64,000 nucleotides of DNA from Candidatus Omnitrophota bacterium (GCA_015233115.1 JADFYJ010000011.1:17824-81823); one strand, 5' to 3'. Positions 16,228-46,936 are shown, numbered from the stretch's first letter. The notes: generated by a model from the sequence alone, not told the origin. Translations and numbers: made by a program.

Positions 16228-18375
16228 ATGGAGATTAGATGGCTTTCCCCGTTTTTTCTGGGTTTGATATCAACCCTCGCCCAAATTATGCTTTTGCGTG
16301 AATTGAATGGGGTGTTTGGCGGGAATGAGATTGGATACGCGTTTGTGCTCGGGAGTTGGTTATTATGGGTGGCTCTTGGCGCTGCGGCTATTAGGTTATT
16401 AGGCTACCGAGTAAAAAATGTAAAAGTTTTACTGTTTATTGGGTTTTTGCTGTTTATTGGGTTTTTGCTGTTTGCAATCCTGATTCCTTCCTTAATTTTT
16501 TTATCCCGTTATCTTAAATTGTTTTTTAATATTCATCCCGGAGAATTAGTGGGTTTGCCGTGGATGATGGGTGTTTCTATCCTTGTGACCGCGCCGCTTA
16601 GTTTTTTAACCGGAGCGATGTTCGCGGTATGCTGTCTACCTTATAGAAAACAAAACTCGCGGAATAATGACTATGTCACTAAAATTTATTACGCTGAATC
16701 TTTAGGGTCGGCTTCAGGAGGAGCTTTATTTTCTTTTGTCATGGTATATTTCTTATCCAATTTGTGGATAGGGTTGGGGCTGGGAGCTTTGGATGCCAAA
16801 TCTAAACAAGCACAATGGTCACCCTTGAAGGTTGCGGCATATACAGATTCTTTGTACGGGCAGTTGACTCTTACTGAATCCAAGGGAGAATACAGTTTAT
16901 ATGAAAACGGTGGGCACAGTTTTACGACCGGGGATTTTTTATCGTCGGAAGAGATGACGCACTATGCCATGCTTTGGCACCCTAATCCTAAAAGAGTTTT
17001 GTTGATAGGAGGGGGAATGGGTGGGGCGTTAGAAGAGATTTTAAAATACAGATCAGCCCAAATCGACTATGTTGAGCTTGATCCAAAAATAATGAGTTTA
17101 AGCGGAGCTAATTTACCGACGCGGTATACCAAAGTTTTGAATGACCCGCGGACCCGCGTGATTAATATGGACGGACGGCGTTTTGTCAAAACCGCGCAGA
17201 TGAATGTTATGACCAAGTCTCCTTATGATGTGATCATTATTGGTGTCGGCGATCCGCATACTTTATTGCAGAACCGTTATTACACTAAAGAATTTTTTGC
17301 TGAGGCGAAACGGGTGCTTAATCAAGACGGGGTGATTAGTTTTTCCGCTCAGTCTGCGGCAGATTATCTGAGTAAGGAAAACCGTCAATCTTTACAATCG
17401 TTTTATTCCACCTTAAAAACTTCATTTAAAAATATTAAATCTTTGCCTGGAGACAGGCATATTTTTGTCGCGTCCAACCGGAATGACTTTGGGTCATGGA
17501 CAGCCGCGTTTTTTGAACAGCAGATCAAACAACGGGGGATTAATACACAATTTGTTTCTAAGGCGTATTTGCCCGCGCGGTTTGATCCATACCGTATAGC
17601 TGAAGTGGAAAAAATCTTGTCTGTTCCCGGGTGGATTAATACCGATGAAAGACCAACCGCTTTTTTATTAGATACCTCTTTGTGGGCCAGTCATTTTAAT
17701 ACTGGATTCGGTGAGTGGTTTGGCCGTCTTGCCAATATTTCTTTTCTTTTCGTTATAGGTTTTATTGTCATCTTGTTTTTGTTTTTTGCTGTTTGGTCGC
17801 GCTTCAAAAAAAATGTTGCCATGGGTACGGCAATTTTTGTAACGGGATTTTGGGGTATGGTTTATCAGATTTTGATCATTCTGGCGTTTCAAAGTATTTT
17901 CGGCTATGTATATCAGAAAATAGGTTTGATCATTGCGTTATTTATGCTTGGATTAGCCGGAGGAAGTTGGATAGCACAAAAACAGTCCCATAATAATGAT
18001 CAAAAGAGGATTCAGAAAATATTCAACAGTTCACAAGTTTGGGGCATGTTTTATTGTTTGTTTTTACCATTTATTTTTTTAGTGTTTCGTGATACTGTGT
18101 TGAAAGGTTTTCAAGTGGATATTTTGTTCTTCGTATTTATGAGTTTGCCTTTTTTAGCCGGAGGGATGGTCGGGTGGCAGTATGGCCTGGCTGTTATGTT
18201 ATTGGGAAATGAAAGCAGGTCTGCCACAGGTTTATACGCGTTGGATGTGCTTGGCGCAGCCTTAGGCGCTTTTTTAGCGGGGATATTTTTAGTGCCGGTT
18301 TTCGGTATCAGTCAGGTGTCATTGTTGTGCGGATTTTTGAATTTTGCTGTATTTTTAATCTTTGTGCTTTTTTAG
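16228..18375 (+). CDS. polytopic membrane protein fused to a spermidine-synthase-like (SpeE-fold) domain
   Basis: 715 aa with many TM helices. A central domain has an aminopropyltransferase-like fold (LIGGGMGGALEEI...VELDP). An internal 18-nt tandem repeat encodes LLFIGFLLFIGF. Confidence 0.6.
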   Translation: MEIRWLSPFFLGLISTLAQIMLLRELNGVFGGNEIGYAFVLGSWLLWVALGAAAIRLLGYRVKNVKVLLFIGFLLFIGFLLFAILIPSLIFLSRYLKLFFNIHPGELVGLPWMMGVSILVTAPLSFLTGAMFAVCCLPYRKQNSRNNDYVTKIYYAESLGSASGGALFSFVMVYFLSNLWIGLGLGALDAKSKQAQWSPLKVAAYTDSLYGQLTLTESKGEYSLYENGGHSFTTGDFLSSEEMTHYAMLWHPNPKRVLLIGGGMGGALEEILKYRSAQIDYVELDPKIMSLSGANLPTRYTKVLNDPRTRVINMDGRRFVKTAQMNVMTKSPYDVIIIGVGDPHTLLQNRYYTKEFFAEAKRVLNQDGVISFSAQSAADYLSKENRQSLQSFYSTLKTSFKNIKSLPGDRHIFVASNRNDFGSWTAAFFEQQIKQRGINTQFVSKAYLPARFDPYRIAEVEKILSVPGWINTDERPTAFLLDTSLWASHFNTGFGEWFGRLANISFLFVIGFIVILFLFFAVWSRFKKNVAMGTAIFVTGFWGMVYQILIILAFQSIFGYVYQKIGLIIALFMLGLAGGSWIAQKQSHNNDQKRIQKIFNSSQVWGMFYCLFLPFIFLVFRDTVLKGFQVDILFFVFMSLPFLAGGMVGWQYGLAVMLLGNESRSATGLYALDVLGAALGAFLAGIFLVPVFGISQVSLLCGFLNFAVFLIFVLF

Positions 18376-26309: not shown

Positions 26310-27107
26310 ATGATTAATTTTTTGGAAAATATTGGACAATCACTTAAAGATTGGATCACAGTTTTTGTTGATATAACCAAGCTGTTTTTTGAAACTGTTT
26401 ATTGGGCAGTATTTGGAATATTTCATCATAAACCGGTCAATTTTAAAACTGTTTTTGAGCAGATGGTTTATATGGGCGTGCAGTCGGTTATGATTGTATT
26501 TTTTGTGACCTTTTTTACCGGCGTAGTTATTGCGATGCAATTAGCTCCGCAATTTCAAAAAATGGGAGCGGTTTTTTATGTATCAAGTATGGTATCCATC
26601 GCGATTTGTCGTGAATTGGGTCCGGTTTTGACGGCTTTAGTCATAGCCGGGCGTATAGGCGCGGCTATTACAGCTGAAGTCGGTTCCATGAAAGTTAATG
26701 AACAAATTGAAGCATTGGAAACAATGGGAATCAATCCAGTGCGGTATTTGGCGGTGCCAAAATTTTTAGCGCTTTTAGTTATGCTTCCGTGTTTAACGGT
26801 TTTGGGCGACGCTTCAGGTATGTTTGGCGGCTATGTGGTGGGAACCACCAGCTTGCATATTAATCCGGGCATGTATATACAAACCACGTTTAAGTTTTTA
26901 TCTCTGAAAGATATTTACACTGGCGTTTCCAAGCCTTTTGTGTTTGCTGCGATCATTTCTATGGTCGGGATATATCAGGGTTTTAAAACCAGAGGCGGAG
27001 CAGTCGGAGTGGGTAAAGCGACCACGACCAGCGTAGTGACCAGTTTTATTTTTATTATTATCGCGGATTGTGTTTTAACAGGGATTTATTTTTTTGTGAA
27101 GTTCTGA
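26310..27107 (+). CDS. mlaE: MlaE-family ABC transporter permease
   Basis: It carries the conserved block GPVLTALVIAGRIGAAITAEVGSMKVNEQIEALETMGINP. Confidence 0.85.
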   Translation: MINFLENIGQSLKDWITVFVDITKLFFETVYWAVFGIFHHKPVNFKTVFEQMVYMGVQSVMIVFFVTFFTGVVIAMQLAPQFQKMGAVFYVSSMVSIAICRELGPVLTALVIAGRIGAAITAEVGSMKVNEQIEALETMGINPVRYLAVPKFLALLVMLPCLTVLGDASGMFGGYVVGTTSLHINPGMYIQTTFKFLSLKDIYTGVSKPFVFAAIISMVGIYQGFKTRGGAVGVGKATTTSVVTSFIFIIIADCVLTGIYFFVKF

Positions 27108-27137
27108 TTTTGAGAATCCGTAGGATTCTCAAAATCA
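27108..27137 (+). promoter_or_regulatory. perfect 11-bp inverted repeat between mlaE and mlaF
   Basis: The sequence ttttgagaatcc-gtag-ggattctcaaaa is followed by a second GC hairpin (accccgaaggcttcagctctgaggggt). Confidence 0.5.
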
Positions 27138-27178
27138 CCCCGAAGGCTTCAGCTCTGAGGGGTTACCTTATAAGGCTA

Positions 27179-27976
27179 ATGCTTATGCAAGAAACAAATC
27201 AAAAATTTATATCGGTTCGGAATTTGATCAAAAAATTCGAAGGCCGAATTGTTTTGGATAATATCAATTTTGATATCCGTCAAGGCGAAATATTTGTCAT
27301 CGTCGGAGGCTCAGGCAGCGGGAAAAGTACGCTTTTGAGAACCATGACGGGAGCTATCAAGCCGGATCAGGGGGAAGTTTATTATAATGGAAAAGATATT
27401 CATTCTTTAAATGAAGAAGAAATGGATAAATTTAGAAAACGTTTTGGGATGAGTTTTCAGAATTCCGCTTTGTTAGATTTTTTAACAGTGGAAGAAAATG
27501 TCAGTTTGCCTATTTACGAACATACCCGCTTGGATGCCAAATTGATTGGTATCATCGCTCAGATGAAGTTAAAACTTGTAGGATTGCATGGATTTGAAAA
27601 TTTTCAAGTTAGTCAGCTTTCTGGGGGGATGAGAAAAAGGGTCGGCCTGGCGCGCGCTATTGCTATGGATCCGGAAATTGTGTTTTATGATGAGCCGACC
27701 GCGGGACTGGATCCGGTGGTTTGCGCGGTGGTTGATCAGCTGATTCTGGATTTAACTAAAAAATTAAATTTAACTTCCGTGGTCGTAACGCATAATATGG
27801 AAAGTGTGTTTCGCATAGCGGATCGTATTGCCATGCTCTATAAGGGTAAAATGCTGCAAGTCGGAACAAAGGATGAGATTAAAAATTCTAAAGATCCGAT
27901 TATTCAACAGTTTATTAAAGGTGAGATTGAAGGCCCGATTCATTTGAATGAAGATGTTATAAAAGACAGTATGTAG
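27179..27976 (+). CDS. mlaF: MlaF-family ABC transporter ATP-binding protein
   Basis: It has Walker A (GGSGSGKST), the signature LSGGMRKR and Walker B. I take the start at ATG 27179 (MLMQETNQ), because the ORF-track start 27068 would overlap mlaE. Confidence 0.85.
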   Translation: MLMQETNQKFISVRNLIKKFEGRIVLDNINFDIRQGEIFVIVGGSGSGKSTLLRTMTGAIKPDQGEVYYNGKDIHSLNEEEMDKFRKRFGMSFQNSALLDFLTVEENVSLPIYEHTRLDAKLIGIIAQMKLKLVGLHGFENFQVSQLSGGMRKRVGLARAIAMDPEIVFYDEPTAGLDPVVCAVVDQLILDLTKKLNLTSVVVTHNMESVFRIADRIAMLYKGKMLQVGTKDEIKNSKDPIIQQFIKGEIEGPIHLNEDVIKDSM

Positions 27977-27982
27977 CATGTG
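27957..27982. repeat. heptamer array, GTATGTR family, overlapping the mlaF stop codon
   Basis: In the sequence agtatgtagcatgtggtatgtgg, the TAG stop lies inside a repeat unit. Confidence 0.6.
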
Positions 27983-28039
27983 GTATGTGGTAAAAGCGAA
28001 TGGTTTGAAAAACGTACAATATATTCAGGAGAATGGGAT

Positions 28040-28744
28040 ATGAAATTGAATAACGAAATAAAAATTGGTGTCATGGTGACGGTTGTGGTGTTGATCCTTT
28101 TTGGATTGACCATAAAGTCAGGAAAATTCAATTTCTCGAGTAAAGGGTATAATGTGCTGGTTGATTTTAATAATGTTGACGGGGTGAATCTTAATTCTCC
28201 GGTTATGCTGAATGGATTTGAAGTGGGCTTGGTGCAGGATATTAAGATTAAAGAAGAGGGTGGAAAAACTAAAATCGAATTAATTTTATGGCTTAAGGAC
28301 GCGGTCAAAATTCATAGAAATACCAAGGCTATTGTTAAGTTGATGGGTTTTATGGGCGAAAAATATGTCGGGTTGATCGCGGGTAACGAAGGACCGTATC
28401 TGCAGAATGGCGATATGCTCGTTGGCCAGGATCCGACGAATTTCGAAGATTTAGTTAAAAATGGAACAGAAATTTCTTTGCAGGTTAAAGAAATTACGCA
28501 AAGGATCAATCAGCTCTTGGCGGATAATGGCACTAAAATAAATAGCATAATGACCAACGCGAATGACACGGTCAAAAATGTATCATCCATTTCCGCGAAT
28601 TTGGATCAGCGGCTGAAAGTTAATGAACAGAATGTGGATGTCATTTTAGGCAGTATGCGGGGTGTTGCTGTTAATTTGGAAGAAATGAGCTCGGATTTGA
28701 AGAAAAATCCGTGGAAGATTCTTTATAAGGGCAAAGAAAAATAA
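28040..28744 (+). CDS. mlaD: MlaD-family (MCE domain) periplasmic substrate-binding protein
   Basis: It has an N-terminal TM anchor (MKLNNEIKIGVMVTVVVLILF) followed by an MCE domain. The start is at 28040, in frame with ORF 27980. Confidence 0.8.
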   Translation: MKLNNEIKIGVMVTVVVLILFGLTIKSGKFNFSSKGYNVLVDFNNVDGVNLNSPVMLNGFEVGLVQDIKIKEEGGKTKIELILWLKDAVKIHRNTKAIVKLMGFMGEKYVGLIAGNEGPYLQNGDMLVGQDPTNFEDLVKNGTEISLQVKEITQRINQLLADNGTKINSIMTNANDTVKNVSSISANLDQRLKVNEQNVDVILGSMRGVAVNLEEMSSDLKKNPWKILYKGKEK

Positions 28745-37661: not shown

Positions 37662-38744
37662 ATGAAAATCATTTCGATAGCAAATCAAAAGGGTGGGTGT
37701 GGTAAAACGACCACAGCCATAAATCTCGCTTCAGCACTTAGTGATAACGGCAAAAAAGTTTTGCTGCTTGATCTGGATCCGCAGGCGCATGCTTCACTGG
37801 GTTTAAACATTCAAAGCCGCGACAGCATTTATAATGTCATTTCGAATTTGACGCCGCGAAAAATGGCGCTCCGCGATATTATTCAGAGTGTGGAGGGAAA
37901 GTTTGACATTGTTCCGTCAAATATTTTAGTGGGAACGCTTGAGCAAGAATTAGCGGATGAAATCGGCCGTGAGCTCAAACTCAAAGAAGTGTTGAATTCG
38001 ATCAAAGATGAATATGATTATATTTTAATTGACTGCGCACCGAGTTTAGGAATTCTGACGGTCAATTCGATCCGGGCGAGCGATGAACTCATTCTTCCTG
38101 TTGAGACCAGCCGTTTCGCGATGCAGGGTGTTGAGCATTTGACGGATATTGTCAATTTGATCAAGGAACGCCTTAATCATTCGGTGGATTGCAAAATTTT
38201 GATTACGATGTTTGATTCCCGCTTGCGTCATTCTTTCTCGATGTTGAAAATTTTCCGCGATAAATATCAGGAAATGTTGTTTGACACGATAGTTCACACG
38301 AATGTGAAATTAAAGGAATCCGCTGTGGTGGGGCAGACTGTTGTGACATTTGATAAATATTGCCGCGGGGCCAAAGATTATCAGGCACTGGCAAAAGAAA
38401 TGATTATGTTGTCAGGCCAGTCCAAAGGCCCGGAAGTGTTCTCCAGCCACATGCGCGAAGTGATCCGCCGTGAAATGCAGGATTGTTTGATGGCGAAATT
38501 TAGAGTTGAAGCGCCAGGGGCCAAGACCGTTTATTTAACCGGCAGTTTTAATGACTGGACGATTGACGAGAATTTTAGAATGCGCAAGGAAAACGGGGAA
38601 TGGGATATCCAAGTACCGTTAAAACCAGGCCGTTATAAATATCAATTCGTGGTTGATGGCGTATGGAAAGCAGATCCGATTAATGTTCAGCAGGAACGCA
38701 ATTCGTTCGGGGATGTCAATTCCGTCGTAGAAATAAATGGTTAG
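37662..38744 (+). CDS. ParA/MinD-family ATPase fused to a C-terminal AMPK-beta/CBM48-type glycogen-binding domain
   Basis: It has a deviant Walker A (ANQKGGCGKTTTAINLA) and a ParA fold. The C-terminal roughly 90 aa (TVYLTGSFNDWTIDENFRMRKENGEWDIQVPLKPGRYKYQFVVDGVW) match the CBM48 or E-set glycogen-binding domain. Confidence 0.75.
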   Translation: MKIISIANQKGGCGKTTTAINLASALSDNGKKVLLLDLDPQAHASLGLNIQSRDSIYNVISNLTPRKMALRDIIQSVEGKFDIVPSNILVGTLEQELADEIGRELKLKEVLNSIKDEYDYILIDCAPSLGILTVNSIRASDELILPVETSRFAMQGVEHLTDIVNLIKERLNHSVDCKILITMFDSRLRHSFSMLKIFRDKYQEMLFDTIVHTNVKLKESAVVGQTVVTFDKYCRGAKDYQALAKEMIMLSGQSKGPEVFSSHMREVIRREMQDCLMAKFRVEAPGAKTVYLTGSFNDWTIDENFRMRKENGEWDIQVPLKPGRYKYQFVVDGVWKADPINVQQERNSFGDVNSVVEING

Positions 38745-38754
38745 GGGATGATTT

Positions 38755-39072
38755 ATGAGCCAGTTTGATGAACAGCAGATTGTTGACGGAAAAGTAATGG
38801 CTGTGCTTGCTTATTTGACCGTCTTATGTATTATTCCGTTATTGTTTCAAAAAAATAATGAGTTTGTTTTATATCATGGAAAACAGGGATTAGTCATTTT
38901 TGTCGCAGAAGTGGGAATTTTTATTCTGCATATTTTGTTAGGAGTATTGATTTTAAAGATCGGAATGTTTTTGATGCTATTGTTCTCCTTTGTAGGCATC
39001 ATCGCCGTCCTACAAGGCCGCCAGATCAATTTGCCGGTCATTTCAGAGATAGCGGAGAAGATTGTATTATAA
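38755..39072 (+). CDS. DUF4870-family small membrane protein
   Basis: It carries the motif AYLTVLCIIPLLFQKNNEFVLYHGKQGLVIF. Confidence 0.55.
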   Translation: MSQFDEQQIVDGKVMAVLAYLTVLCIIPLLFQKNNEFVLYHGKQGLVIFVAEVGIFILHILLGVLILKIGMFLMLLFSFVGIIAVLQGRQINLPVISEIAEKIVL

Positions 39073-39075
39073 AAT

Positions 39076-39113
39076 TGGTTGATGGTTTTTGGTTGATGGT
39101 TTTTGGTTATTGA
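39076..39113. repeat. tandem heptamer array, TGGTTTT/TGGTTGA family
   Basis: The sequence ttggttgatggtttttggttgatggtttttggttattg. It is the left arm of an inverted pair around the 39133 gene. Confidence 0.8.
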
Positions 39114-39132
39114 ATGGTGAAGGAAATTTTAA

Positions 39133-39489
39133 ATGTTTAGTTTTGAAAAATTGGAAGTTTGGCAGGAATCTTTAAAGTTAGTTTTAGAGATAAATAAACT
39201 GACCAAGATTTTTCCTAAAGAAGAAATGTTTGCGTTAAGTAGTCAAATGAAACGTGCTGTATTGTCGATTTCTTTAAATATTGCAGAGGGTTCGGGTCGA
39301 TCTACAAAGTTAGATTTTAAAAGGTTTGTTCAAATAGCTATCGGTTCAACTAATGAAACAGTTACGTGTTTATTTGTAGCAAAGAATCAAAAATATATTG
39401 ATGAAATTATTTTTTCACAATTTTATTTAAAATTAGAGTCAATTTCGAAGATGTTGTATTCGATGGAAAAATATTTAAAAGTCAATTAA
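39133..39489 (+). CDS. four-helix-bundle protein (23S rRNA intervening-sequence protein family, TIGR02436-like)
   Basis: 118 aa with the family-typical LEVWQESLKLVLEINKLTKIFPKEEMFALSSQMKRAVLSISLNIAEGSGR. Confidence 0.75.
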   Translation: MFSFEKLEVWQESLKLVLEINKLTKIFPKEEMFALSSQMKRAVLSISLNIAEGSGRSTKLDFKRFVQIAIGSTNETVTCLFVAKNQKYIDEIIFSQFYLKLESISKMLYSMEKYLKVN

Positions 39490-39490
39490 A

Positions 39491-39523
39491 TCAACAAAAA
39501 CCAACAACCAAAAACCATCAACC
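39491..39523. repeat. tandem heptamer array (reverse complement of 39076-39113), right arm of the inverted pair
   Basis: The sequence tcaacaaaaaccaacaaccaaaaaccatcaacc. Confidence 0.8.
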
Positions 39524-39528
39524 GATAT

Positions 39529-39711
39529 ATGAAATCTTTTCGTCGTCATCAAGAATTAGGTCAAAATCTTATTGAATATACTATGGTTTTTATTTTGGCA
39601 GTTCTCGTATTGATTGTTTTTTTGCGGCCTAAAGGACTATTTGTCAATCAGGTCAATAAATCCTTGGATCAGGCCGTCTCGTTTATTGGTCAAGAATTAA
39701 AGAAAAAATAG
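39529..39711 (+). CDS. Flp-family type IVb pilin-like small protein
   Basis: 60 aa. The G-x4-IEYT motif is followed by a hydrophobic helix (GQNLIEYTMVFILAVLVLIV). Confidence 0.5.
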   Translation: MKSFRRHQELGQNLIEYTMVFILAVLVLIVFLRPKGLFVNQVNKSLDQAVSFIGQELKKK

Positions 39712-39713
39712 GC

Positions 39714-40139
39714 ATGAAAAGTCTCGACAGTAATCAAAAAAATTTGACCCGCCGTTATCTCAGCTGGTGTTACAAGACCACAAAAGAAGATCTGGACCGA
39801 ATTGACCGCTATTTTACTCAATTGACAGTCGATGATTTTATTTTAAATAAACTGCGCGGTTCCAAAGAATTCAAAGTATCTGCGAACAAAGATTTTGCAA
39901 AATTAGTTAATGATTTCGGAGATTACCGGAATAAGAAAGAAGAGCGGGTTTTAGCGCAAAAATTTGAAAATCAAGCCCGTAAAGTTTTACAGCCGCAGTA
40001 TTTATACCTCCAAAAACGCTTTCAAGCCATTGAAGCCGCGATCGTTCATTTTTTAGGCGATAAAGAATTGAAAAAGATAATTGATGCTTATGAACGAGAA
40101 ATGACGACACGGATACTTCAATCAAGGGAACACAAATAA
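39714..40139 (+). CDS. hypothetical protein
   Basis: 141 aa and helical. Its start overlaps the previous stop codon. Confidence 0.5.
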   Translation: MKSLDSNQKNLTRRYLSWCYKTTKEDLDRIDRYFTQLTVDDFILNKLRGSKEFKVSANKDFAKLVNDFGDYRNKKEERVLAQKFENQARKVLQPQYLYLQKRFQAIEAAIVHFLGDKELKKIIDAYEREMTTRILQSREHK

Positions 40140-40774: not shown

Positions 40775-43700
40775 ATGTTTTCTGCAAAAAAAGTTATTTC
40801 ATCTGTTTTACTGGTCGTTATTTCTTTAACCTTTACAGTGCCGCCGCAATATGCGCAAGCACAATTTGTATTGACGCCAAGCATTCCTGCGCCAACAAGT
40901 TACGTTCCTGTTATAATCAAGGGCGTAAATCTTAATCCGCAGAATCCGCTCAAGTTCGATTTTATTATCGACCGAGGAACTTCCTCCGCTGATTTGCCTT
41001 TGGCAAATCAAAGCGCGGAGGCTGCGTTTCGTTCCGAATCGCAGAAACTAATCCGCTACTTTTTAGCTTCTTTAACTATCCCCCAAAAAGATATGTGGGT
41101 TAACCTTTCGCCGAATGAGCCAGACAGAATTGTGCCACAAACTTTTGGTAACACAGAAATGGGCCGCGATTTATTAGCGCAAGATTTTATGCTGAAACAA
41201 CTGACAGCCAGTCTCATGAGCCCGGATGGAGAAGTGGGACGAAAGTTTTGGGATAAAGTCTACGCCAAAATTTACGAAACTCCCTCTCCCCTTCGGGGAG
41301 AGGGTAGGGTGAGGGGTTTAGAAATCCCCACCGACATTTTTAACAAAGTCTGGATTGTCCCATCTAAAGCCAAAATTTATGAACATGAAAAAGGTGCGTT
41401 TATTACAGATACAGCGTTTAAAGTCATGACAGAGCGCGACTATGTCGCGCAGACACAAGACACAGGACACAAGTCACAAGAAGGACAAGATGCTGTGACC
41501 TTACAAATAGTCAAAGATGTTATCATCCCCGCTATTGAACAAGAAGTCAACCATGGCAAAACTTTTGCTAACTTGCGCCAGATCTATAATTCTCTTATCT
41601 TAGCCATGTGGTACAAAGAAAAAGTTAAGAAAAGCGTGCTCGGCCAGGCTTACTCTAATAAAGAGAAGACTTCTGGTCTAGAAGTCGCCTCAAATGAAAA
41701 ACAAAAGATCTACCAACAATATCTCGACGCTTTCCGTAAAGGCGCGAGTAATGCGATTAAAGAAGAATATGATCCCAATACCCAACAAATTGTAGCCCGG
41801 AAATATTTCTCTGGCGGTATTCAAGCAGATCAGGCACAAATTTCATTAGCTACAAAAGAGGAAATGGACGCGGCTATGAAAGCTGCCATTGCCACGGAGA
41901 ATGTTGCGACGGTAATTCAGTTTGCAGGAGCCAAAGCCCCTGACGCGGCGATGACCAGCGAAATTGTTAAAGAAATAGTTAAAAGTTTTGTTGAAGATTT
42001 TAAAAGAAAGCGTCTACCTGGTGGTTTTAATTTTTCTGTTGATGCCCAACAAAGCGGAGAAGATGTTATAGTTACAATTGAACAAACTACCAGGTCTCTG
42101 CCCCCGATACTAATTCAAGATTTTTATCACTATGTTAGCTGGTTGACAAATAAATTTACTTCTCCAATTAAATTGACACCGATGGATAGTCTGAGTGCGT
42201 ATATGCGTAAATTTAAAATTTCCGACGCGGCGATGATGTCTGTAGAGAAATACAATCGGGTGATAAAAGATGCTGAGCAAGCTTGGGGAGGAGAATTGGA
42301 GCGAGCGGATCAATTGGTTGAGTTTTTGAAAAATCGATTTAATCCTGAAAAAGCTTTGGAATCAGGAGCGATTTTTATTCCCAGGGCTGTGGTGCAGAAT
42401 GAAGCGCGGATGGGTTTAACGCCTATTGGGATTAAACTGTTAAAAAGTTTAGGCATTAAAAATGAAATTTATGTCGAAGCTGCAGCAGGAATAAATCGGC
42501 AGAGTGGCAAGGTTTATTTCACGGATGCGTATTACATAAATGCTGGAGCAAAAATTTTGTCCCATGATGAATTTTATAAACGGGCGGAACAAGCAGATAA
42601 AAAAGTTGTGGTGAGCATTAAGGAACCGCAAGAATCAGAATACAAATTATTAAAAAACGCGCTGTTATTTACTTATTTGCATTTGGCGGATAGCCCTAAG
42701 TTGACTCAGGATTTGTTAAATTTATTAGCAACTGGTGTGGCGTATGAAACTATTGCTTTTAAAACGCCAGAGGGGATAACCAGAACTCCGGTGTTAGCTC
42801 CTGCCAGTATTGCCGCTGGGTGGGTCAGCGCGGCCCGTACTGCCGCATTTTTTGGGGGGATAATTAATGACGAAAGACAGCGTATATTTGCAGAATCATT
42901 ACAGTATTATGCCACTTCTGAAAATTTCCCTCTTAACTTGCGGAAAAGTTTAGAAGGAATAACTGTAACTGTTCTGGGCGGCGGAGTTGCCGGAGAAAGC
43001 GCAGCCATAACTCTCGCGAAAATGGGAGCAAAGGTTTATATCACAGAAGTTAATCCTAAAAGGATCCTGGAGTTAGAAAAGATAATCACTTCACAAGGAT
43101 TAGGATTAGCGATTACAGTTTTAAAAAGAGATCTTTCTGTTCCACGGGTCTTTGACCAATTTCGAACAGAATTGTTAGAATCATCCGCGATAATTGGCGC
43201 CGTTCTTATCCCCGGAGCCAAGGCGCCGAAAGAGATAGATGAATCAACATATGAAGCGCTGGTCAAAGGAGGAAAATTTAAATTTTTTGCTGATATAGCG
43301 ATTGATCAAGGCGGAAATAACGTCAGAAGTGTCGCGCGTAAATATCAAGATGGCTGGCCTATGGATGAAAATCGAGTCGGACAATTTACTGTGACAAACA
43401 TGCCCAGCGTTGTTCCTTTGCAGGTTTCATTTGGTTTGGAACGAGCCAAATTAGCGTATTTAGTAGCGCTTTTGATGGGCACACCAGAAGCGGTCAAGGC
43501 GTTTCCCGAATTAGAGCAGGGTGTGAACATCCGTAATGGCCAGATCACGAATAAGCCGGTCGGGGAAGCGGTTAGAATGGATGCTGTTTCATTAAAAGAA
43601 GCAGATGAAGCAATCGCGACAGTTGATGCGGCGATGACCGTAGACCCGTTTAATCTTACTACAAAAAATGTGGCGGAATGGGATAATATTCAACGGGCGA

Positions 43701-45784
43701 TAACTGATGATGTTATTTCTAACCGGGTCATTCCTTTAATTAAAGGCAGTTATTTGAAGGGGGTAGAAAAAAATCAGTTAATAAACACAATTCAAAAACT
43801 ACGGGAAATATCTTCGGTTGATTTTGAAAAAAGCAAAAAAGATAACCCGCTTCATCACAGTTTTATAGTTCTGGATATTGTGTTACAGATTGCTTTTGGA
43901 AAAAAATTATTCTATCCGGAAATTAAAAAACTGGCAGCTTTAGCCATTCTGCATGATTTAGGTTATGGCGCGTTAGAAGAAAGCAAAGGTCGTATCAGTA
44001 GTGGTAAGATTAAACAAATGATTAAGGATTATGAGCTTCAAAAGGATAGTTTATCCAAGGAACTGAGGGAGGAAAAAGTAGCGGCAATAAAAAAAGCCAT
44101 TCAAGGTGCTATTGATGCTAGAAATGAGCATATGGAAAAAGGCGTTTTTATAGCTCAAATATTGTTAGAGAAATTTAATAAAGAAGATTCTGATCCGGAC
44201 GATAAGTTTAGTCCTGAAGATATTAAGGAGATATGTGCGTTAGTCGGGATGCATGATAATCCTGGTATTGCTAAGACGTATGAAACTGAAGAATATAAAC
44301 CATATATATCTGGATCAGCTGATAAATTACTTATTGGTAAAGATAAGCAACTAGCGCTTATTTTTCGTGAAGCAGACAGATTGTGGATGCTTTCCTATGA
44401 AGGATTAATAAAGGATTTAATGGATAGTTTGCTTAAAGGTGACAACCCTCTCTCTGTTGAGAAACAGCTCGTCAATAATATCGCTGTATTTAGTGATGAA
44501 CGAAAGTCATACGATGCGACAGGTAAAGATTATGGCAATTTTAAAGGCGATACTTTCATTAGAACTGACACAGGTTATAAAATATATAAAGATTTTATCC
44601 AGGCATGGCAAAAGATAATCAAAGATCATGCTGCTTTAGTGAAGGCTTTTAAAATCCAAAGGTTTGATTTTAATAGAGCGACCGATACTGCGATGACTGC
44701 ATTTGAAGAGAAGAGACAGACTTTTAGAGATAATTTATTAGCTATAGTGCAAAAGGGCTGTCAACCTAGTGGACTCTCCATATTGAGAAAGCAAATAACA
44801 GAGTTTATCATTTTAGAACAAGATTCGCCGTATCTCTCCAGATTTTTATATAATTTTTTAAATGATCTAGTTGAATTGCATCAGTCTTTAAATGCTGACA
44901 AAGCCGATGCTTTATATTCCTTATTTCACAATTTAAATGACTGGGTGGCAGGAATAAAAACTAGTAATGGAGCCATCTTAATAGATTATTGGGTTGAGAC
45001 AGAAAACGGAAAAATGAAATTAGAAAAAAATAAATCATGGATCTATTCTCGCGATATAGTGATTAGGGATACGATTTTCTTAATTTTGTTACGTAATTTA
45101 TTGATCAACATGCCAATGACTGCAGATTTTAAAGAAACAAGTGCCGGAAAAATTCCTGATATGAAATCGGTTCTGGAAGTCGATAAAAATTTTAAGATGC
45201 AGCTTAATTTGCTTAAAGGAATTAATCCTCAAAAATTAAGCAGTCTTAAGAAAAATTTTGCAGGAGCCATATCGTCAATAAAGGCATGGTCAGAGGTTTC
45301 TGAAGTATGGGATAACGTTGAAGGCGTTGTCTCAATCGTCTCGTCTCCTTGTCAAGAATCCGCGAAACAATTGAATGATTTTTATGCAAGCATTCCCGAC
45401 AAGGCGATGACAGTGGATGAGGAAAATAAAACAGACGGTGGTATCGACTTAAACGCCGCGCAGTTTTCCGTTGGAGTTGATAAACAGGGAAAAGGGTTTG
45501 AATATAATGTGGATCCGGCTATGTTACAGCAATTCATCAACGCGCCGGGGGTTAACGCGATTATTACCAATATTCAGCCGATTACCAATTTGCCGGTGTT
45601 TTTGGGGTTGGCAGTGGGGAAACCCCGTAAAATCGCTTATGCGATCACGGGGTCGGAAAAAACTGATCAAGTCGCGCTTCAGCTTTCTTTATTGGATGTC
45701 ATGGATAGCTTGACGATAAGGTTCGGGTATGATACATTTATTTTGAAAAATAAGGAGGTCGATTGCCAACAATTTTGGTCGTAG
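40775..45784 (+). CDS. giant secreted modular protein (1669 aa), paralogue of 9745..16095, with alanine-dehydrogenase/PNT-like and HD phosphohydrolase domains
   Basis: The signal peptide ends in PQYAQAQ. The N-terminal domain and the C-terminal 50 aa are shared with giant gene 1. The centre has AlaDH-like blocks (FTYLHLA, GVAYETIAF, LGGGVAGESAA) and HD motifs (LHDLGYG, GMHDNPG). Confidence 0.8.
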   Translation: MFSAKKVISSVLLVVISLTFTVPPQYAQAQFVLTPSIPAPTSYVPVIIKGVNLNPQNPLKFDFIIDRGTSSADLPLANQSAEAAFRSESQKLIRYFLASLTIPQKDMWVNLSPNEPDRIVPQTFGNTEMGRDLLAQDFMLKQLTASLMSPDGEVGRKFWDKVYAKIYETPSPLRGEGRVRGLEIPTDIFNKVWIVPSKAKIYEHEKGAFITDTAFKVMTERDYVAQTQDTGHKSQEGQDAVTLQIVKDVIIPAIEQEVNHGKTFANLRQIYNSLILAMWYKEKVKKSVLGQAYSNKEKTSGLEVASNEKQKIYQQYLDAFRKGASNAIKEEYDPNTQQIVARKYFSGGIQADQAQISLATKEEMDAAMKAAIATENVATVIQFAGAKAPDAAMTSEIVKEIVKSFVEDFKRKRLPGGFNFSVDAQQSGEDVIVTIEQTTRSLPPILIQDFYHYVSWLTNKFTSPIKLTPMDSLSAYMRKFKISDAAMMSVEKYNRVIKDAEQAWGGELERADQLVEFLKNRFNPEKALESGAIFIPRAVVQNEARMGLTPIGIKLLKSLGIKNEIYVEAAAGINRQSGKVYFTDAYYINAGAKILSHDEFYKRAEQADKKVVVSIKEPQESEYKLLKNALLFTYLHLADSPKLTQDLLNLLATGVAYETIAFKTPEGITRTPVLAPASIAAGWVSAARTAAFFGGIINDERQRIFAESLQYYATSENFPLNLRKSLEGITVTVLGGGVAGESAAITLAKMGAKVYITEVNPKRILELEKIITSQGLGLAITVLKRDLSVPRVFDQFRTELLESSAIIGAVLIPGAKAPKEIDESTYEALVKGGKFKFFADIAIDQGGNNVRSVARKYQDGWPMDENRVGQFTVTNMPSVVPLQVSFGLERAKLAYLVALLMGTPEAVKAFPELEQGVNIRNGQITNKPVGEAVRMDAVSLKEADEAIATVDAAMTVDPFNLTTKNVAEWDNIQRAITDDVISNRVIPLIKGSYLKGVEKNQLINTIQKLREISSVDFEKSKKDNPLHHSFIVLDIVLQIAFGKKLFYPEIKKLAALAILHDLGYGALEESKGRISSGKIKQMIKDYELQKDSLSKELREEKVAAIKKAIQGAIDARNEHMEKGVFIAQILLEKFNKEDSDPDDKFSPEDIKEICALVGMHDNPGIAKTYETEEYKPYISGSADKLLIGKDKQLALIFREADRLWMLSYEGLIKDLMDSLLKGDNPLSVEKQLVNNIAVFSDERKSYDATGKDYGNFKGDTFIRTDTGYKIYKDFIQAWQKIIKDHAALVKAFKIQRFDFNRATDTAMTAFEEKRQTFRDNLLAIVQKGCQPSGLSILRKQITEFIILEQDSPYLSRFLYNFLNDLVELHQSLNADKADALYSLFHNLNDWVAGIKTSNGAILIDYWVETENGKMKLEKNKSWIYSRDIVIRDTIFLILLRNLLINMPMTADFKETSAGKIPDMKSVLEVDKNFKMQLNLLKGINPQKLSSLKKNFAGAISSIKAWSEVSEVWDNVEGVVSIVSSPCQESAKQLNDFYASIPDKAMTVDEENKTDGGIDLNAAQFSVGVDKQGKGFEYNVDPAMLQQFINAPGVNAIITNIQPITNLPVFLGLAVGKPRKIAYAITGSEKTDQVALQLSLLDVMDSLTIRFGYDTFILKNKEVDCQQFWS
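41452..41490. repeat. in-frame heptamer array (ACACAAG family) inside giant gene 2
   Basis: The sequence cagacacaagacacaggacacaagtcacaagaaggacaag encodes TQDTGHKSQEGQD in a linker. Confidence 0.6.
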
Positions 45785-45999
45785 GGCCTTATAGATTCTT
45801 TTTTTATTCAAGTGATGCGAATGAACCGATTCACGTTCATGTTCAGTCTGAAGACTCATCGGCAAAAGTTTGGGTTAAACCTTTACGACTACAATCATCC
45901 AAAGGGTTTAATCAGCGGCAGATAAGTGAAATTTTGAAAATTGTTGAAAGGCATATCCCTCTTTTTGAAAGGAAATGGCATGAATATTTTAAGTTTTGA
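45763..45999 (+). CDS. DUF4160 family protein
   Basis: The sequence MPTILVVGPYRFFFYSSDANEPIHVHV... overlaps the giant gene by 22 nt. Confidence 0.6.
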   Translation: MPTILVVGPYRFFFYSSDANEPIHVHVQSEDSSAKVWVKPLRLQSSKGFNQRQISEILKIVERHIPLFERKWHEYFKF

Positions 46000-46276
46000 G
46001 CATGAATGTCTTGCTACAAAGCTGTCTTTTTCCGAGGATTCTTTCACGGTTTATCTAAATGATGGACGCCATCTCACCATCCCATTAGCTTGGTATCCGA
46101 GGCTCCTCGCAGGAACTAAACAGGAACGTGAAAATTATGCACTGATTGGAGGCGGTGAAGGCGTTCATTGGTCTAAATTGGATGAGGATATACTTATCGA
46201 AGGGCTCTTAGCTGGACATCATTCTAAAGAAAACCAGAGTTCGCTCAAAAAATGGCTTCAAAAACGAAAAAAATGA
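45980..46276 (+). CDS. DUF2442 family protein
   Basis: The sequence MNILSFEHECLATKLSF... has an AAAGGAAA RBS and overlaps DUF4160 by 20 nt. This is the usual DUF4160-DUF2442 pair. Confidence 0.6.
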   Translation: MNILSFEHECLATKLSFSEDSFTVYLNDGRHLTIPLAWYPRLLAGTKQERENYALIGGGEGVHWSKLDEDILIEGLLAGHHSKENQSSLKKWLQKRKK

Positions 46277-46481: not shown

Positions 46482-46666
46482 GCGAACCTAACTGAGGGTT
46501 TGTCGCTGCATTTTAGACACTTGAAAAACGCTTATCTATGGCCTTTTCTCGTTTCCAGCAGGACTGCGCTGTACTTACATTAATTATTTGTAATCAAGGG
46601 ATTACGAAAAGGCAGAGCGGTTAAGATAGCCCACTGATAAACAAATGGTTGAAACAGGAGGAAAAC

Positions 46667-46936
46667 GTGGTTTTACAAAAGGATCAAAAACAGCAGGTTA
46701 TTGACGCTTACAAAACGCACACCAATGACACAGGGTCAGCCGTCGTGCAAATCGCACTTCTTTCGAGCCGGATTGAATATTTGGCGGATCACTTCAAGGC
46801 TCACAAAAAAGATTTCAATTCGCGTCGGGGATTGTTAAAAATGATCAGTCAGAGACGGCGCCTTTTGAGTTATCTTAAGAAAACAGATGCTCAGAAGTAT
46901 CAAGAGACAATTGATAAGTTAAACTTACGGAAATAG
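46667..46936 (+). CDS. rpsO: 30S ribosomal protein S15
   Basis: It carries the motifs [50 protein letters not shown] start is 5 nt after AGGAGG, and the ORF track extends to a TTG at 46649. Confidence 0.88.

Follow-up and report, generated by a model that had tools for sequence, protein, structure and literature searches.

A large open reading frame (ORF) on the forward strand of a 64,000-nt stretch of Candidatus Omnitrophota bacterium DNA (GCA_015233115.1 JADFYJ010000011.1:17824-81823; the whole stretch is called the window, and coordinates are counted from its first letter) encodes, judging from its sequence, one member of an Omnitrophota-wide paralogous protein family, in which the alanine dehydrogenase (AlaDH)-like and HD hydrolase-like parts of this particular protein represent two among dozens of cargo types that replace one another. 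The explanation that we favor, with moderate confidence, is that the product of this ORF (40775-45784) is a Sec-exported modular protein of a "head-cargo-tail" build specific to Omnitrophota, whose enzymes would be catalytically competent and would act outside the cytoplasm. The ORF runs without interruption for 1669 aa from an ATG that is preceded by GGAG 9 nt upstream, and its product is identical to MBF0479240.1 from a Candidatus Omnitrophica bacterium metagenome-assembled genome (MAG). The database label of that entry, 'FAD-dependent oxidoreductase', is wrong; its sequence features describe a modular, predicted exported protein in which an AlaDH-like dehydrogenase is combined with an HD hydrolase.

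More than 2,400 database entries match the protein. Family detail was read from 120 listed proteins among these (i.e., the protein itself and 119 others, which share ~20-29% of its length), and a species-level scan covered one genome per species (GTDB species representatives), where at least 593 family loci were found. All 80 listed loci come from Omnitrophota-type MAGs, including Ca. Elulimicrobium and Ca. Zapsychrus, with some labeled 'uncultured Planctomycetales', and a single MAG among them holds up to eight. At least three further members carry locus tags of the assembly studied here (HQL26_...). What the members have in common is a signal peptide, a head that with it takes up the first ~350 residues, and a tail of ~60 residues; their middles differ completely. 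An earlier note on this DNA, made from the sequence alone, had treated the protein as a singular oddity, a view that does not survive relatives in these numbers.

The head is one of the two parts that define the family. Including part of the signal peptide (aa 5-350; PDNPF.FDF ... WVNLSP.E.DR ... YFSGG), it is 45-68% identical to its counterpart in all 119 other listed proteins; for the head module (aa 30-348), identity to these proteins is 45-50%. It contains 41 invariant positions, many of them polar, among which are W108, N110, S112, E115, R118, D137, K141, Q142, K191, E257, N259, R268, Q269 and K281. An AlphaFold2 model of the head (pLDDT 74, pTM 0.64) shows a mixed alpha/beta structure of helices and beta-hairpins. 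The tail is common to 108 of the 120 listed proteins and, with a single exception among these, stands 0-40 residues away from the C-terminus; in the full-length AlphaFold2 model of family member P0025 (pLDDT 56), it is predicted to form short strands and one helix only. Neither head nor tail matches a Pfam or NCBIfam family. For aa 1500-1669, NCBIfam gave nothing even at E<=10 and thus no sorting-signal match, Pfam gave a chance match to IQUB (E = 0.078), and a profile of the family searched against PDB sequences returned coiled-coil noise only. We guess that head and tail serve all members alike in some form of handling (anchoring, onward secretion, assembly or processing), a suggestion drawn solely from the fact that both are constant across the family.

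The N-terminus of the protein displays every sequence feature of a signal peptide that would be cleaved by signal peptidase I. MFSAKK is followed by the hydrophobic region VISSVLLVVISLTFTV; the 16-residue hydrophobic core gives way to a helix-breaking PP, and cleavage is predicted between A29 and Q30 (AQA↓Q). This core is the sole strongly hydrophobic segment of the protein (19-aa Kyte-Doolittle value above 1.5) besides one charged window at aa 1428, and a hydropathy scan found no C-terminal transmembrane (TM) helix. The family looks the same: a simple rule recognized a signal-peptide-like N-terminus in 92 of 103 members, the predicted cleavage sites of most members read AxA↓Q, SxA↓Q or VxA↓Q, and just 8 of the 103 have a further strongly hydrophobic window. 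Furthermore, family members have on average 2.9 Lys and Arg residues ahead of the hydrophobic core, against 0.3 in the next 15 aa. By the positive-inside rule, this asymmetry would place the bulk of the protein outside the cytoplasm whether the peptide is cut or not. The earlier note had described a large protein bearing an unambiguous cleavable signal peptide, and both the pattern in this protein and the 92 relatives agree with it. The alternative that it had considered, an uncleaved anchor that keeps the domains cytoplasmic, is argued against by the charge asymmetry and the AxA↓Q site.

The cargo of the family, which stands between head and tail, consists of shuffled enzymes and other domains of a normally cytoplasmic kind and covers a wide range of functions. 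Among its enzymes are PGI, PGM, PGK, enolase, transketolase, PFK, UDP-glucose pyrophosphorylase, glycogen phosphorylase, SDR epimerases and aldo-keto reductase. Other members carry methyltransferases, GNAT, NUDIX, HIT, HAD, PP2C, histidine-kinase ATPase, response regulators, HTH, DnaJ, M23 peptidase, ankyrin or HEAT repeats, and guanylate kinase (GK). At least one member (P0008) contains cargo that is typically extracytoplasmic, an M23 peptidase. Several members combine the cassettes seen here, in the orders AlaDH-GK (P0002), HD-GK (P0121), GK-HD-PFK (P0123) and HD-ankyrin (P0122). This recurring co-occurrence of AlaDH, HD and GK cassettes hints at a functional link around nucleotide metabolism.

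The module at aa 500-945 belongs to the AlaDH family and is probably, on its sequence, an NAD-dependent amino-acid/2-oxo-acid dehydrogenase. AlaDh_PNT_N (PF05222) matches aa 535-662 (E = 1.6e-20; 74.1 bits against a cut-off of 30.4) and is followed in canonical order by AlaDh_PNT_C (PF01262) at aa 729-927 (E = 2.4e-29; 102.7 bits against a cut-off of 23), while solved alanine dehydrogenases align to aa 533-935 with E-values down to 7e-36. The alanine-dehydrogenase/PNT signatures that the earlier note had recognized are indeed where it placed them, with FTYLHLA at aa 632, AYETIAF at aa 656 and a Rossmann GGGVAG at aa 735-740. In an alignment to canonical alanine dehydrogenases, E543, R545, K616, H636 and D844 are all kept. 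We take these to be the equivalents of E13, R15, K74/75, H95/96 and D269/270 of solved AlaDH, in the numbering of the structural literature. E758 (ITEVN), an acidic residue at the end of beta-2, aligns with the NAD-ribose-binding Asp of canonical ILD(V/I)N. The same E, R, K, H and D residues and the Rossmann motif are kept in all five of the closest relatives of the module. The most likely substrate pair is a 2-oxo-acid and amino-acid of the pyruvate/alanine type, with NAD(H).

The module is not an ordinary alanine dehydrogenase in every respect. It scores 154.4 bits against the alanine dehydrogenase equivalog TIGR00518, which does not reach the cut-off of 391.85, and canonical AlaDH proteins are 34-36% identical to it. 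Its closest relatives are the module of P0002 and the proteins P0270-P0272 (49-57% identity), with which it forms a small 'long' subclade that is set apart by an additional segment at the N-terminus and an insertion of 5 residues. The hinge loop GGxGxLLGGVPGV is absent from the protein, the P0002 module and P0270-P0272, all of which have a longer unrelated insert instead. The gene neighbors of the stand-alone 'long AlaDH' genes P0271 and P0272 bear no relation to the protein described here.

The next module resembles HD-superfamily phosphohydrolases and has an apparently intact metal site. Its ligand set consists of H1028, H1060-D1061, H1119, H1160-D1161 and D1201, together with R1198. The protein itself stays below the PF01966 cut-off of 22, at 14.0 bits when searched whole (E = 0.064) and 19.3 bits when the module is excised. 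An exhaustive HMMER search with aa 951-1540 retrieved 149 proteins, in which all listed matches but one cover aa 953-1285; these relatives include stand-alone proteins of 270-380 aa and modules of larger proteins, the longest of which has 7,376 aa. When 38 of the relatives are aligned, H1028, H1060-D1061, H1119, D1161, R1198 and D1201 show no variation and H1160 almost none, and the ligands are also kept in 10 of 12 other embedded copies checked. PF01966 is matched by 23 of the 38 (best E = 1.4e-8) and PF24391 (HD-CE) by 5. Searched against the PDB, the family profile matches the solved 'predicted HD superfamily hydrolase' 2pq7 (E = 5.6e-5) and, weakly, YfbR. At the level of superfamily and family, the HD assignment is therefore right as judged from these profiles and alignments, although the protein alone is sub-threshold. 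The HD motif set of the earlier note thus stands as regards the presence of the motifs and their conservation in relatives, with the protein's own score as the part that falls short. The substrate of the HD module is most likely a nucleotide-type phosphoester that would be hydrolyzed. The 149 relatives (P0121-P0269) make up an uncurated clade of ~300 aa marked by NP.HH, LLHD.G, R..HM..G, IHDNP, READRLWM and N..R...E..LY, and unnamed proteins of 3,000-7,400 aa contain it as well, many of them with signal-peptide-like starts.

The two remaining modules match neither Pfam nor NCBIfam. The region around the first (aa 389-488) is common to P0005 (44% identity) and P0025. The sole partial relatives of the second (aa 1308-1541) are P0005 (aa 1339-1434, 28% identity) and P0253 (33% identity), and the exhaustive HMMER search gave no other. 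Since GK accompanies AlaDH or HD in P0002, P0121 and P0123, we considered a degenerate guanylate kinase for the second module; this was rejected because it has no P-loop and no BLAST or Pfam similarity to one.

The modules are punctuated by a four-residue motif, D-x-A-M. The protein contains seven copies, and the six outside the tail all lie at module borders; the double DxA after the head is also present in the family consensus. D.AM is found 342 times in the variable middles of the 120 listed proteins, where 16.3 occurrences are expected (21-fold), and the next unrelated gapped pattern is enriched at most 2.5-fold. Variants are not enriched there (E.AM 1.0-fold, D.AL 0.7-fold, D.SM 1.0-fold). 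In six members checked for this, every copy of the motif lies outside the Pfam envelopes. Its flanks are not conserved except that L/T/I/V are slightly favored at +4 and A/S/G/T at +5, and ~45 family members have one copy 6-20 aa ahead of GGIDLN. It is absent from non-family large proteins that carry the same HD-like module. Because this is a strict, context-free four-residue motif confined to linkers, D-x-A-M is best explained, on these sequence statistics, as a recognition site for a specific enzyme, and we infer that the simplest candidate would be a protease that separates the cassettes. A signal at the nucleotide level (an internal start or a recombination site) was rejected as the main explanation: the Asp codons are at background and all four Ala codons occur at the motif, which indicates that selection acts mainly on the protein. 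In the 80 listed loci (L001-L080) and the window, GCG makes up 45% of codons at the motif Ala against a background of 28%. When x is Ala, the GCG share at that position is 81%, and a minor nucleotide-level or codon-context effect may be present.

Table 1 Features of ORF 40775-45784, its neighbors and the second family member in the window.
Feature	Position in protein	Coordinates	Strand	Remarks
Second family member, MBF0479215.1	2116 aa	9745-16095	+	tblastn: head 51% identity (E = 2e-112), tail 45%
DQAM copies in MBF0479215.1	aa 820, 1354, 1887	12202, 13804, 15403	+	Bound three tandem cassettes
MlaE-MlaF-MlaD operon		26310-28744	+	Diderm-envelope marker
Predicted Sec signal peptide	aa 1-29	40775-40861	+	n-region MFSAKK, h-region VISSVLLVVISLTFTV, c-region PPQYAQA
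Family-defining N-terminal head	aa 30-348	40862-41818	+	~320 aa; ends YFSGG
DAAM	aa 365	41867-41878	+	Closes head, first of two
DAAM	aa 390	41942-41953	+	Closes head, second of two
Small module	aa 394-483	41954-42223	+	Between DAAM aa 390 and DAAM aa 484
DAAM	aa 484-487	42224-42235	+	Ahead of AlaDH-like module
AlaDH/PNT-family dehydrogenase module	aa 500-945 (core aa 533-935)	42272-43609	+	Pfam, solved AlaDH structures
DAAM	aa 951-954	43625-43636	+	AlaDH/HD border
Divergent HD-superfamily phosphohydrolase-like module	aa 953-1285	43631-44629	+	149 relatives, 2pq7 profile match
DTAM	aa 1304-1307	44684-44695	+	After HD module
Module	aa 1308-1541	44696-45397	+	Between DTAM aa 1304 and DKAM aa 1542
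DKAM	aa 1542-1545	45398-45409	+	13 aa upstream of tail
Family-defining C-terminal tail	aa 1555-1613	45437-45613	+	GGIDLN...DPAML...PVIINI.P..NL..FLGL; this protein reads NLPVFLGL at the end
D-x-A-M inside tail (DPAML)		45512-45523	+	
Post-tail extension and stop codon	56 aa	45614-45784	+	Last 22 nt within DUF4160 ORF
DUF4160 gene		45763-45999	+	Pfam E = 2e-16; TTG start; overlaps last 22 nt of ORF 40775-45784
DUF2442 gene		45941-46276	+	Pfam E = 1.8e-19
rpsO		46649-46936		DUF4160/DUF2442 cassette stands between ORF 40775-45784 and rpsO

The presence of MlaE, MlaF and MlaD in the window indicates that the organism has a diderm envelope with a periplasm. In the mechanism that we favor, the protein would be translocated unfolded via Sec, cut after A29, and folded outside the cytoplasm of this diderm cell. 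Head and tail would then provide common handling for retention, onward secretion, surface anchoring or assembly, and the enzyme cassettes would be active catalysts in one of three places, namely the periplasm, the surface of the cell, or the zone of contact with a host or prey cell. D-x-A-M would be recognized by a dedicated enzyme, most simply a processing protease that splits the cassettes. Several observations weigh against this mechanism. To our knowledge, compartments beyond the cytoplasm do not normally offer NAD(H) or nucleotides, and other cargo of the family needs cytoplasmic partners or cofactors (HTH, response regulators, DnaJ, histidine-kinase ATPase, PGK, and SAM (S-adenosylmethionine)- or acetyl-CoA-dependent enzymes). 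The export call is based on sequence rules, and D-x-A-M cleavage is conjectural; an exact copy of the motif outside the tail is missing in 16 of the 120 members. No conserved upstream neighbor gene (e.g., a protease or transporter) was found at ~65 family loci. The head has no significant fold match in the PDB (Foldseek; best E = 0.46, colicin Ia), and the model of P0025, a short member of 962 aa, is too poor to reveal how head and tail relate to each other.

The cytoplasmic location of NAD(H), nucleotides, DNA, Hsp70, ATP and SAM keeps two other readings alive, in which the enzymes would meet a cytoplasm after all. The protein might be exported and then passed into a host or prey cell, which would supply NAD, nucleotides, ATP and DNA, by its head and/or tail, with a cut at D-x-A-M releasing the enzymes there, a function like that of MARTX toxins. 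This reading extends to the whole family the idea of the earlier note that the protein may be an injected effector, which would act on host NAD or nucleotide pools. Cargo made up mostly of enzymes and regulators that need cytoplasmic cofactors or partners would suit delivery of this kind, as would conserved termini, shuffled central cassettes and a short inter-cassette motif, and Omnitrophota are described as ultra-small, host-dependent and possibly predatory epibionts (PMC10066038; bioRxiv 10.1101/2023.11.21.568195). This cargo, however, is housekeeping-like and not toxic, the weak colicin Ia hit gives the head no fold match to toxin translocation domains, and Pfam and NCBIfam detected no translocation apparatus, pore-forming repeats or autoprocessing protease domain. 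Together with the lack of immunity-like partner genes or conserved neighbors upstream of the ~65 loci, this makes delivery into another cell improbable. Alternatively, the N-terminal segment might stay uncleaved and tether the enzymes to the inner membrane facing the producer's own cytoplasm, so that metabolism would be organized at the membrane. Enzymes that need NAD, ATP or SAM, HTH domains that bind DNA, and response regulators are the type of cargo that such a tether would carry, and a TM-only topology with a cytoplasmic bulk is predicted for 46% of Omnitrophota giant proteins in one preprint (bioRxiv 10.64898/2026.06.07.730766). The positive-inside rule nonetheless puts the N-terminus inside and the bulk outside, the core is short (16 aa) and is followed by the helix-breaking PP and a conserved AxA↓Q site, and no second membrane segment could return the chain to the inside; we consider a cytoplasmic tether unlikely for these reasons.

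Two further explanations concern the integrity of the protein. If the AlaDH-like and HD-like parts were catalytically dead, they would serve in structure or binding only, and three departures could be cited for this: an AlaDH score far below the equivalog cut-off, an inter-domain loop replaced by an insertion, and an HD module under the Pfam cut-off. All AlaDH catalytic, substrate and cofactor residues checked are nevertheless kept, both in the protein and in relatives of 49-57% identity, and the HD metal ligands are conserved across relatives of 23-34% identity (H1160 nearly invariant), which renders dead domains very unlikely. Inert structural folds in both modules were the case that the earlier note had weighed against its own proposal, and catalytic and metal-binding residues are kept in both; its idea of a moonlighting scaffold has no support. 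The ORF is also almost certainly not a chimera created by misassembly or by the loss of stop codons between genes, even though its source is a metagenome-assembled genome and each D-x-A-M motif contains an ATG codon. The frame is open over 1669 codons, the order head-AlaDH-tail is repeated in P0002, an independent JGI protein, and the same head-cargo-tail layout appears in hundreds of independent assemblies; the internal ATGs have no conserved context on their 5' side, and synonymous codons vary at the motif.

A broader version of the export model can be put forward, tentatively and with some doubt. Going by sequence features across the family, a phylum-wide system might use Sec to export a large share of ordinary metabolic and regulatory enzymes as polyproteins with a common head and tail that would be cut at D-x-A-M by a specific protease, and the freed enzymes would then have an expanded periplasm, a surface coat, or an attached host or prey cell as their place of work (i.e., the 'outsourced metabolism' of an ultra-small epibiont). 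The candidate protease could possibly be the head itself, given its invariant polar residues S112, K141 and K191. Should the proteins indeed be exported and active, Omnitrophota would have enzymes dependent on NAD, ATP and SAM at sites that lack cofactors in textbook bacteria, and this would bear directly on how these ultra-small, host-dependent organisms feed. The family offers a tractable entry point to such questions, with members of 1-3 thousand rather than 10-150 thousand residues, a defined head and tail, and a four-residue boundary motif. D-x-A-M could be a new processing or sorting signal, and the cassette structure shows how proteins of this kind are built and reshuffled.

The second family member in the window, MBF0479215.1, has no Pfam family match over its whole length. 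It contains three tandem cassettes of ~1.6 kb, with direct repeats 1599-1602 nt apart and 80-90% identical at the nucleotide level. Each cassette ends in ...SHKDQAM, which indicates a recent duplication of cassettes at motif boundaries. Directly downstream of this paralog, a 715-aa protein (16228-18375, +) has a spermidine-synthase domain limited to aa 238-415.

The genes around ORF 40775-45784 are of the usual housekeeping kind found on a chromosome (PFOR, PPDK, FtsK, PNPase, S15, riboflavin synthesis and Mla). On its 5' side lies a stand-alone '23S rRNA intervening sequence protein' (39133-39489, +; PF05635, E = 3e-36), around which several small ORFs without a family match are found at 38755-40139. 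An unusual fusion is encoded at 37662-38744 (+), where a ParA/MinD-type ATPase (AAA_31, CbiA) continues at its C-terminus into a glycogen-binding AMPK1_CBM/CBM48 domain. The DUF4160/DUF2442 pair at the 3' end (45763-46276) is an unrelated small cassette, a neighbor of the large protein and not part of it. Of the 108 proteins measured, just one has a longer extension beyond its tail than this protein, whose original stop codon may have been displaced by this cassette.

Several known systems share part of the build described here. Solved Ald enzymes (8hyh, 1pjb, 2vhw) have both AlaDH/PNT domains, the catalytic residues, GxGxxG and the acidic NAD-ribose ligand in common with the protein, in which, unlike Ald (TIGR00518), the module is embedded in an exported multidomain protein. 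HD phosphohydrolases (PF01966; 2pq7, and the 5'-deoxynucleotidase YfbR) have the H..HD..D core and the additional H and HD ligands in common with the protein, whose module belongs to a distinct clade, ~300 aa long, that is extended at both ends by conserved sequence (NP.HH, READRLWM, N..R...E..LY). In MARTX toxins, conserved N- and C-terminal regions frame shuffled enzyme cassettes with short sites between them; these toxins leave the cell by type I secretion with a C-terminal signal, they contain glycine-rich repeats, and a cysteine protease domain within them cuts after Leu. The layout is alike, but the family has a Sec signal peptide and housekeeping-like cargo where MARTX cargo is cytotoxic, and neither RTX glycine-rich repeats nor a C80 cysteine protease domain is among the Pfam and NCBIfam matches of the protein. 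The cargo of the type IX secretion system (T9SS) of Bacteroidota combines a Sec signal peptide with a conserved C-terminal sorting domain (PMC11285876). Like the family, it is a large paralogous set of proteins that are otherwise unrelated and have in common a Sec signal at the N-terminus and a small conserved domain at the extreme C-terminus. The family differs from it in a ~60-aa tail without a sorting-domain match, an extra head of 320 aa, and its occurrence in another phylum; T9SS, PEP-CTERM, GlyGly-CTERM and LPXTG sorting models all failed to match the C-terminal region of the protein.

The closest parallels come from the phylum itself, for which a Nature Microbiology survey described a host-dependent lifestyle (PMC10066038). 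According to two preprints, Omnitrophota encode giant proteins of at least 10,000 aa that are tiled with cytoplasmic-type enzyme domains; 94% of these proteins have signal peptides or TM helices, and the authors now read them as periplasmic or extracellular (bioRxiv 10.1101/2023.11.21.568195; bioRxiv 10.64898/2026.06.07.730766). The sections of both that we read do not mention the head, the GGIDLN tail or the D-x-A-M punctuation, and we found no description in the literature searched of a family of 1-3 thousand residues, of 'DxAM', or of a relevant Omnitrophota alanine dehydrogenase. The 'multi-enzyme metabolic cluster' giants and the Archaeovorins resemble the protein in phylum, in their N-terminal signal peptide and in their cytoplasmic-type domains (HATPase_c, methyltransferase, PGM, HAD, NUDIX, HD, response regulator). 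They differ from it in size (at least 10,000 aa against 1,669 aa) and in usually having many TM helices, where the protein has one hydrophobic segment, its signal peptide. Exported 'cytoplasmic' enzymes are thus not new for Omnitrophota, and the protein described here is a small relative in kind of these giants.

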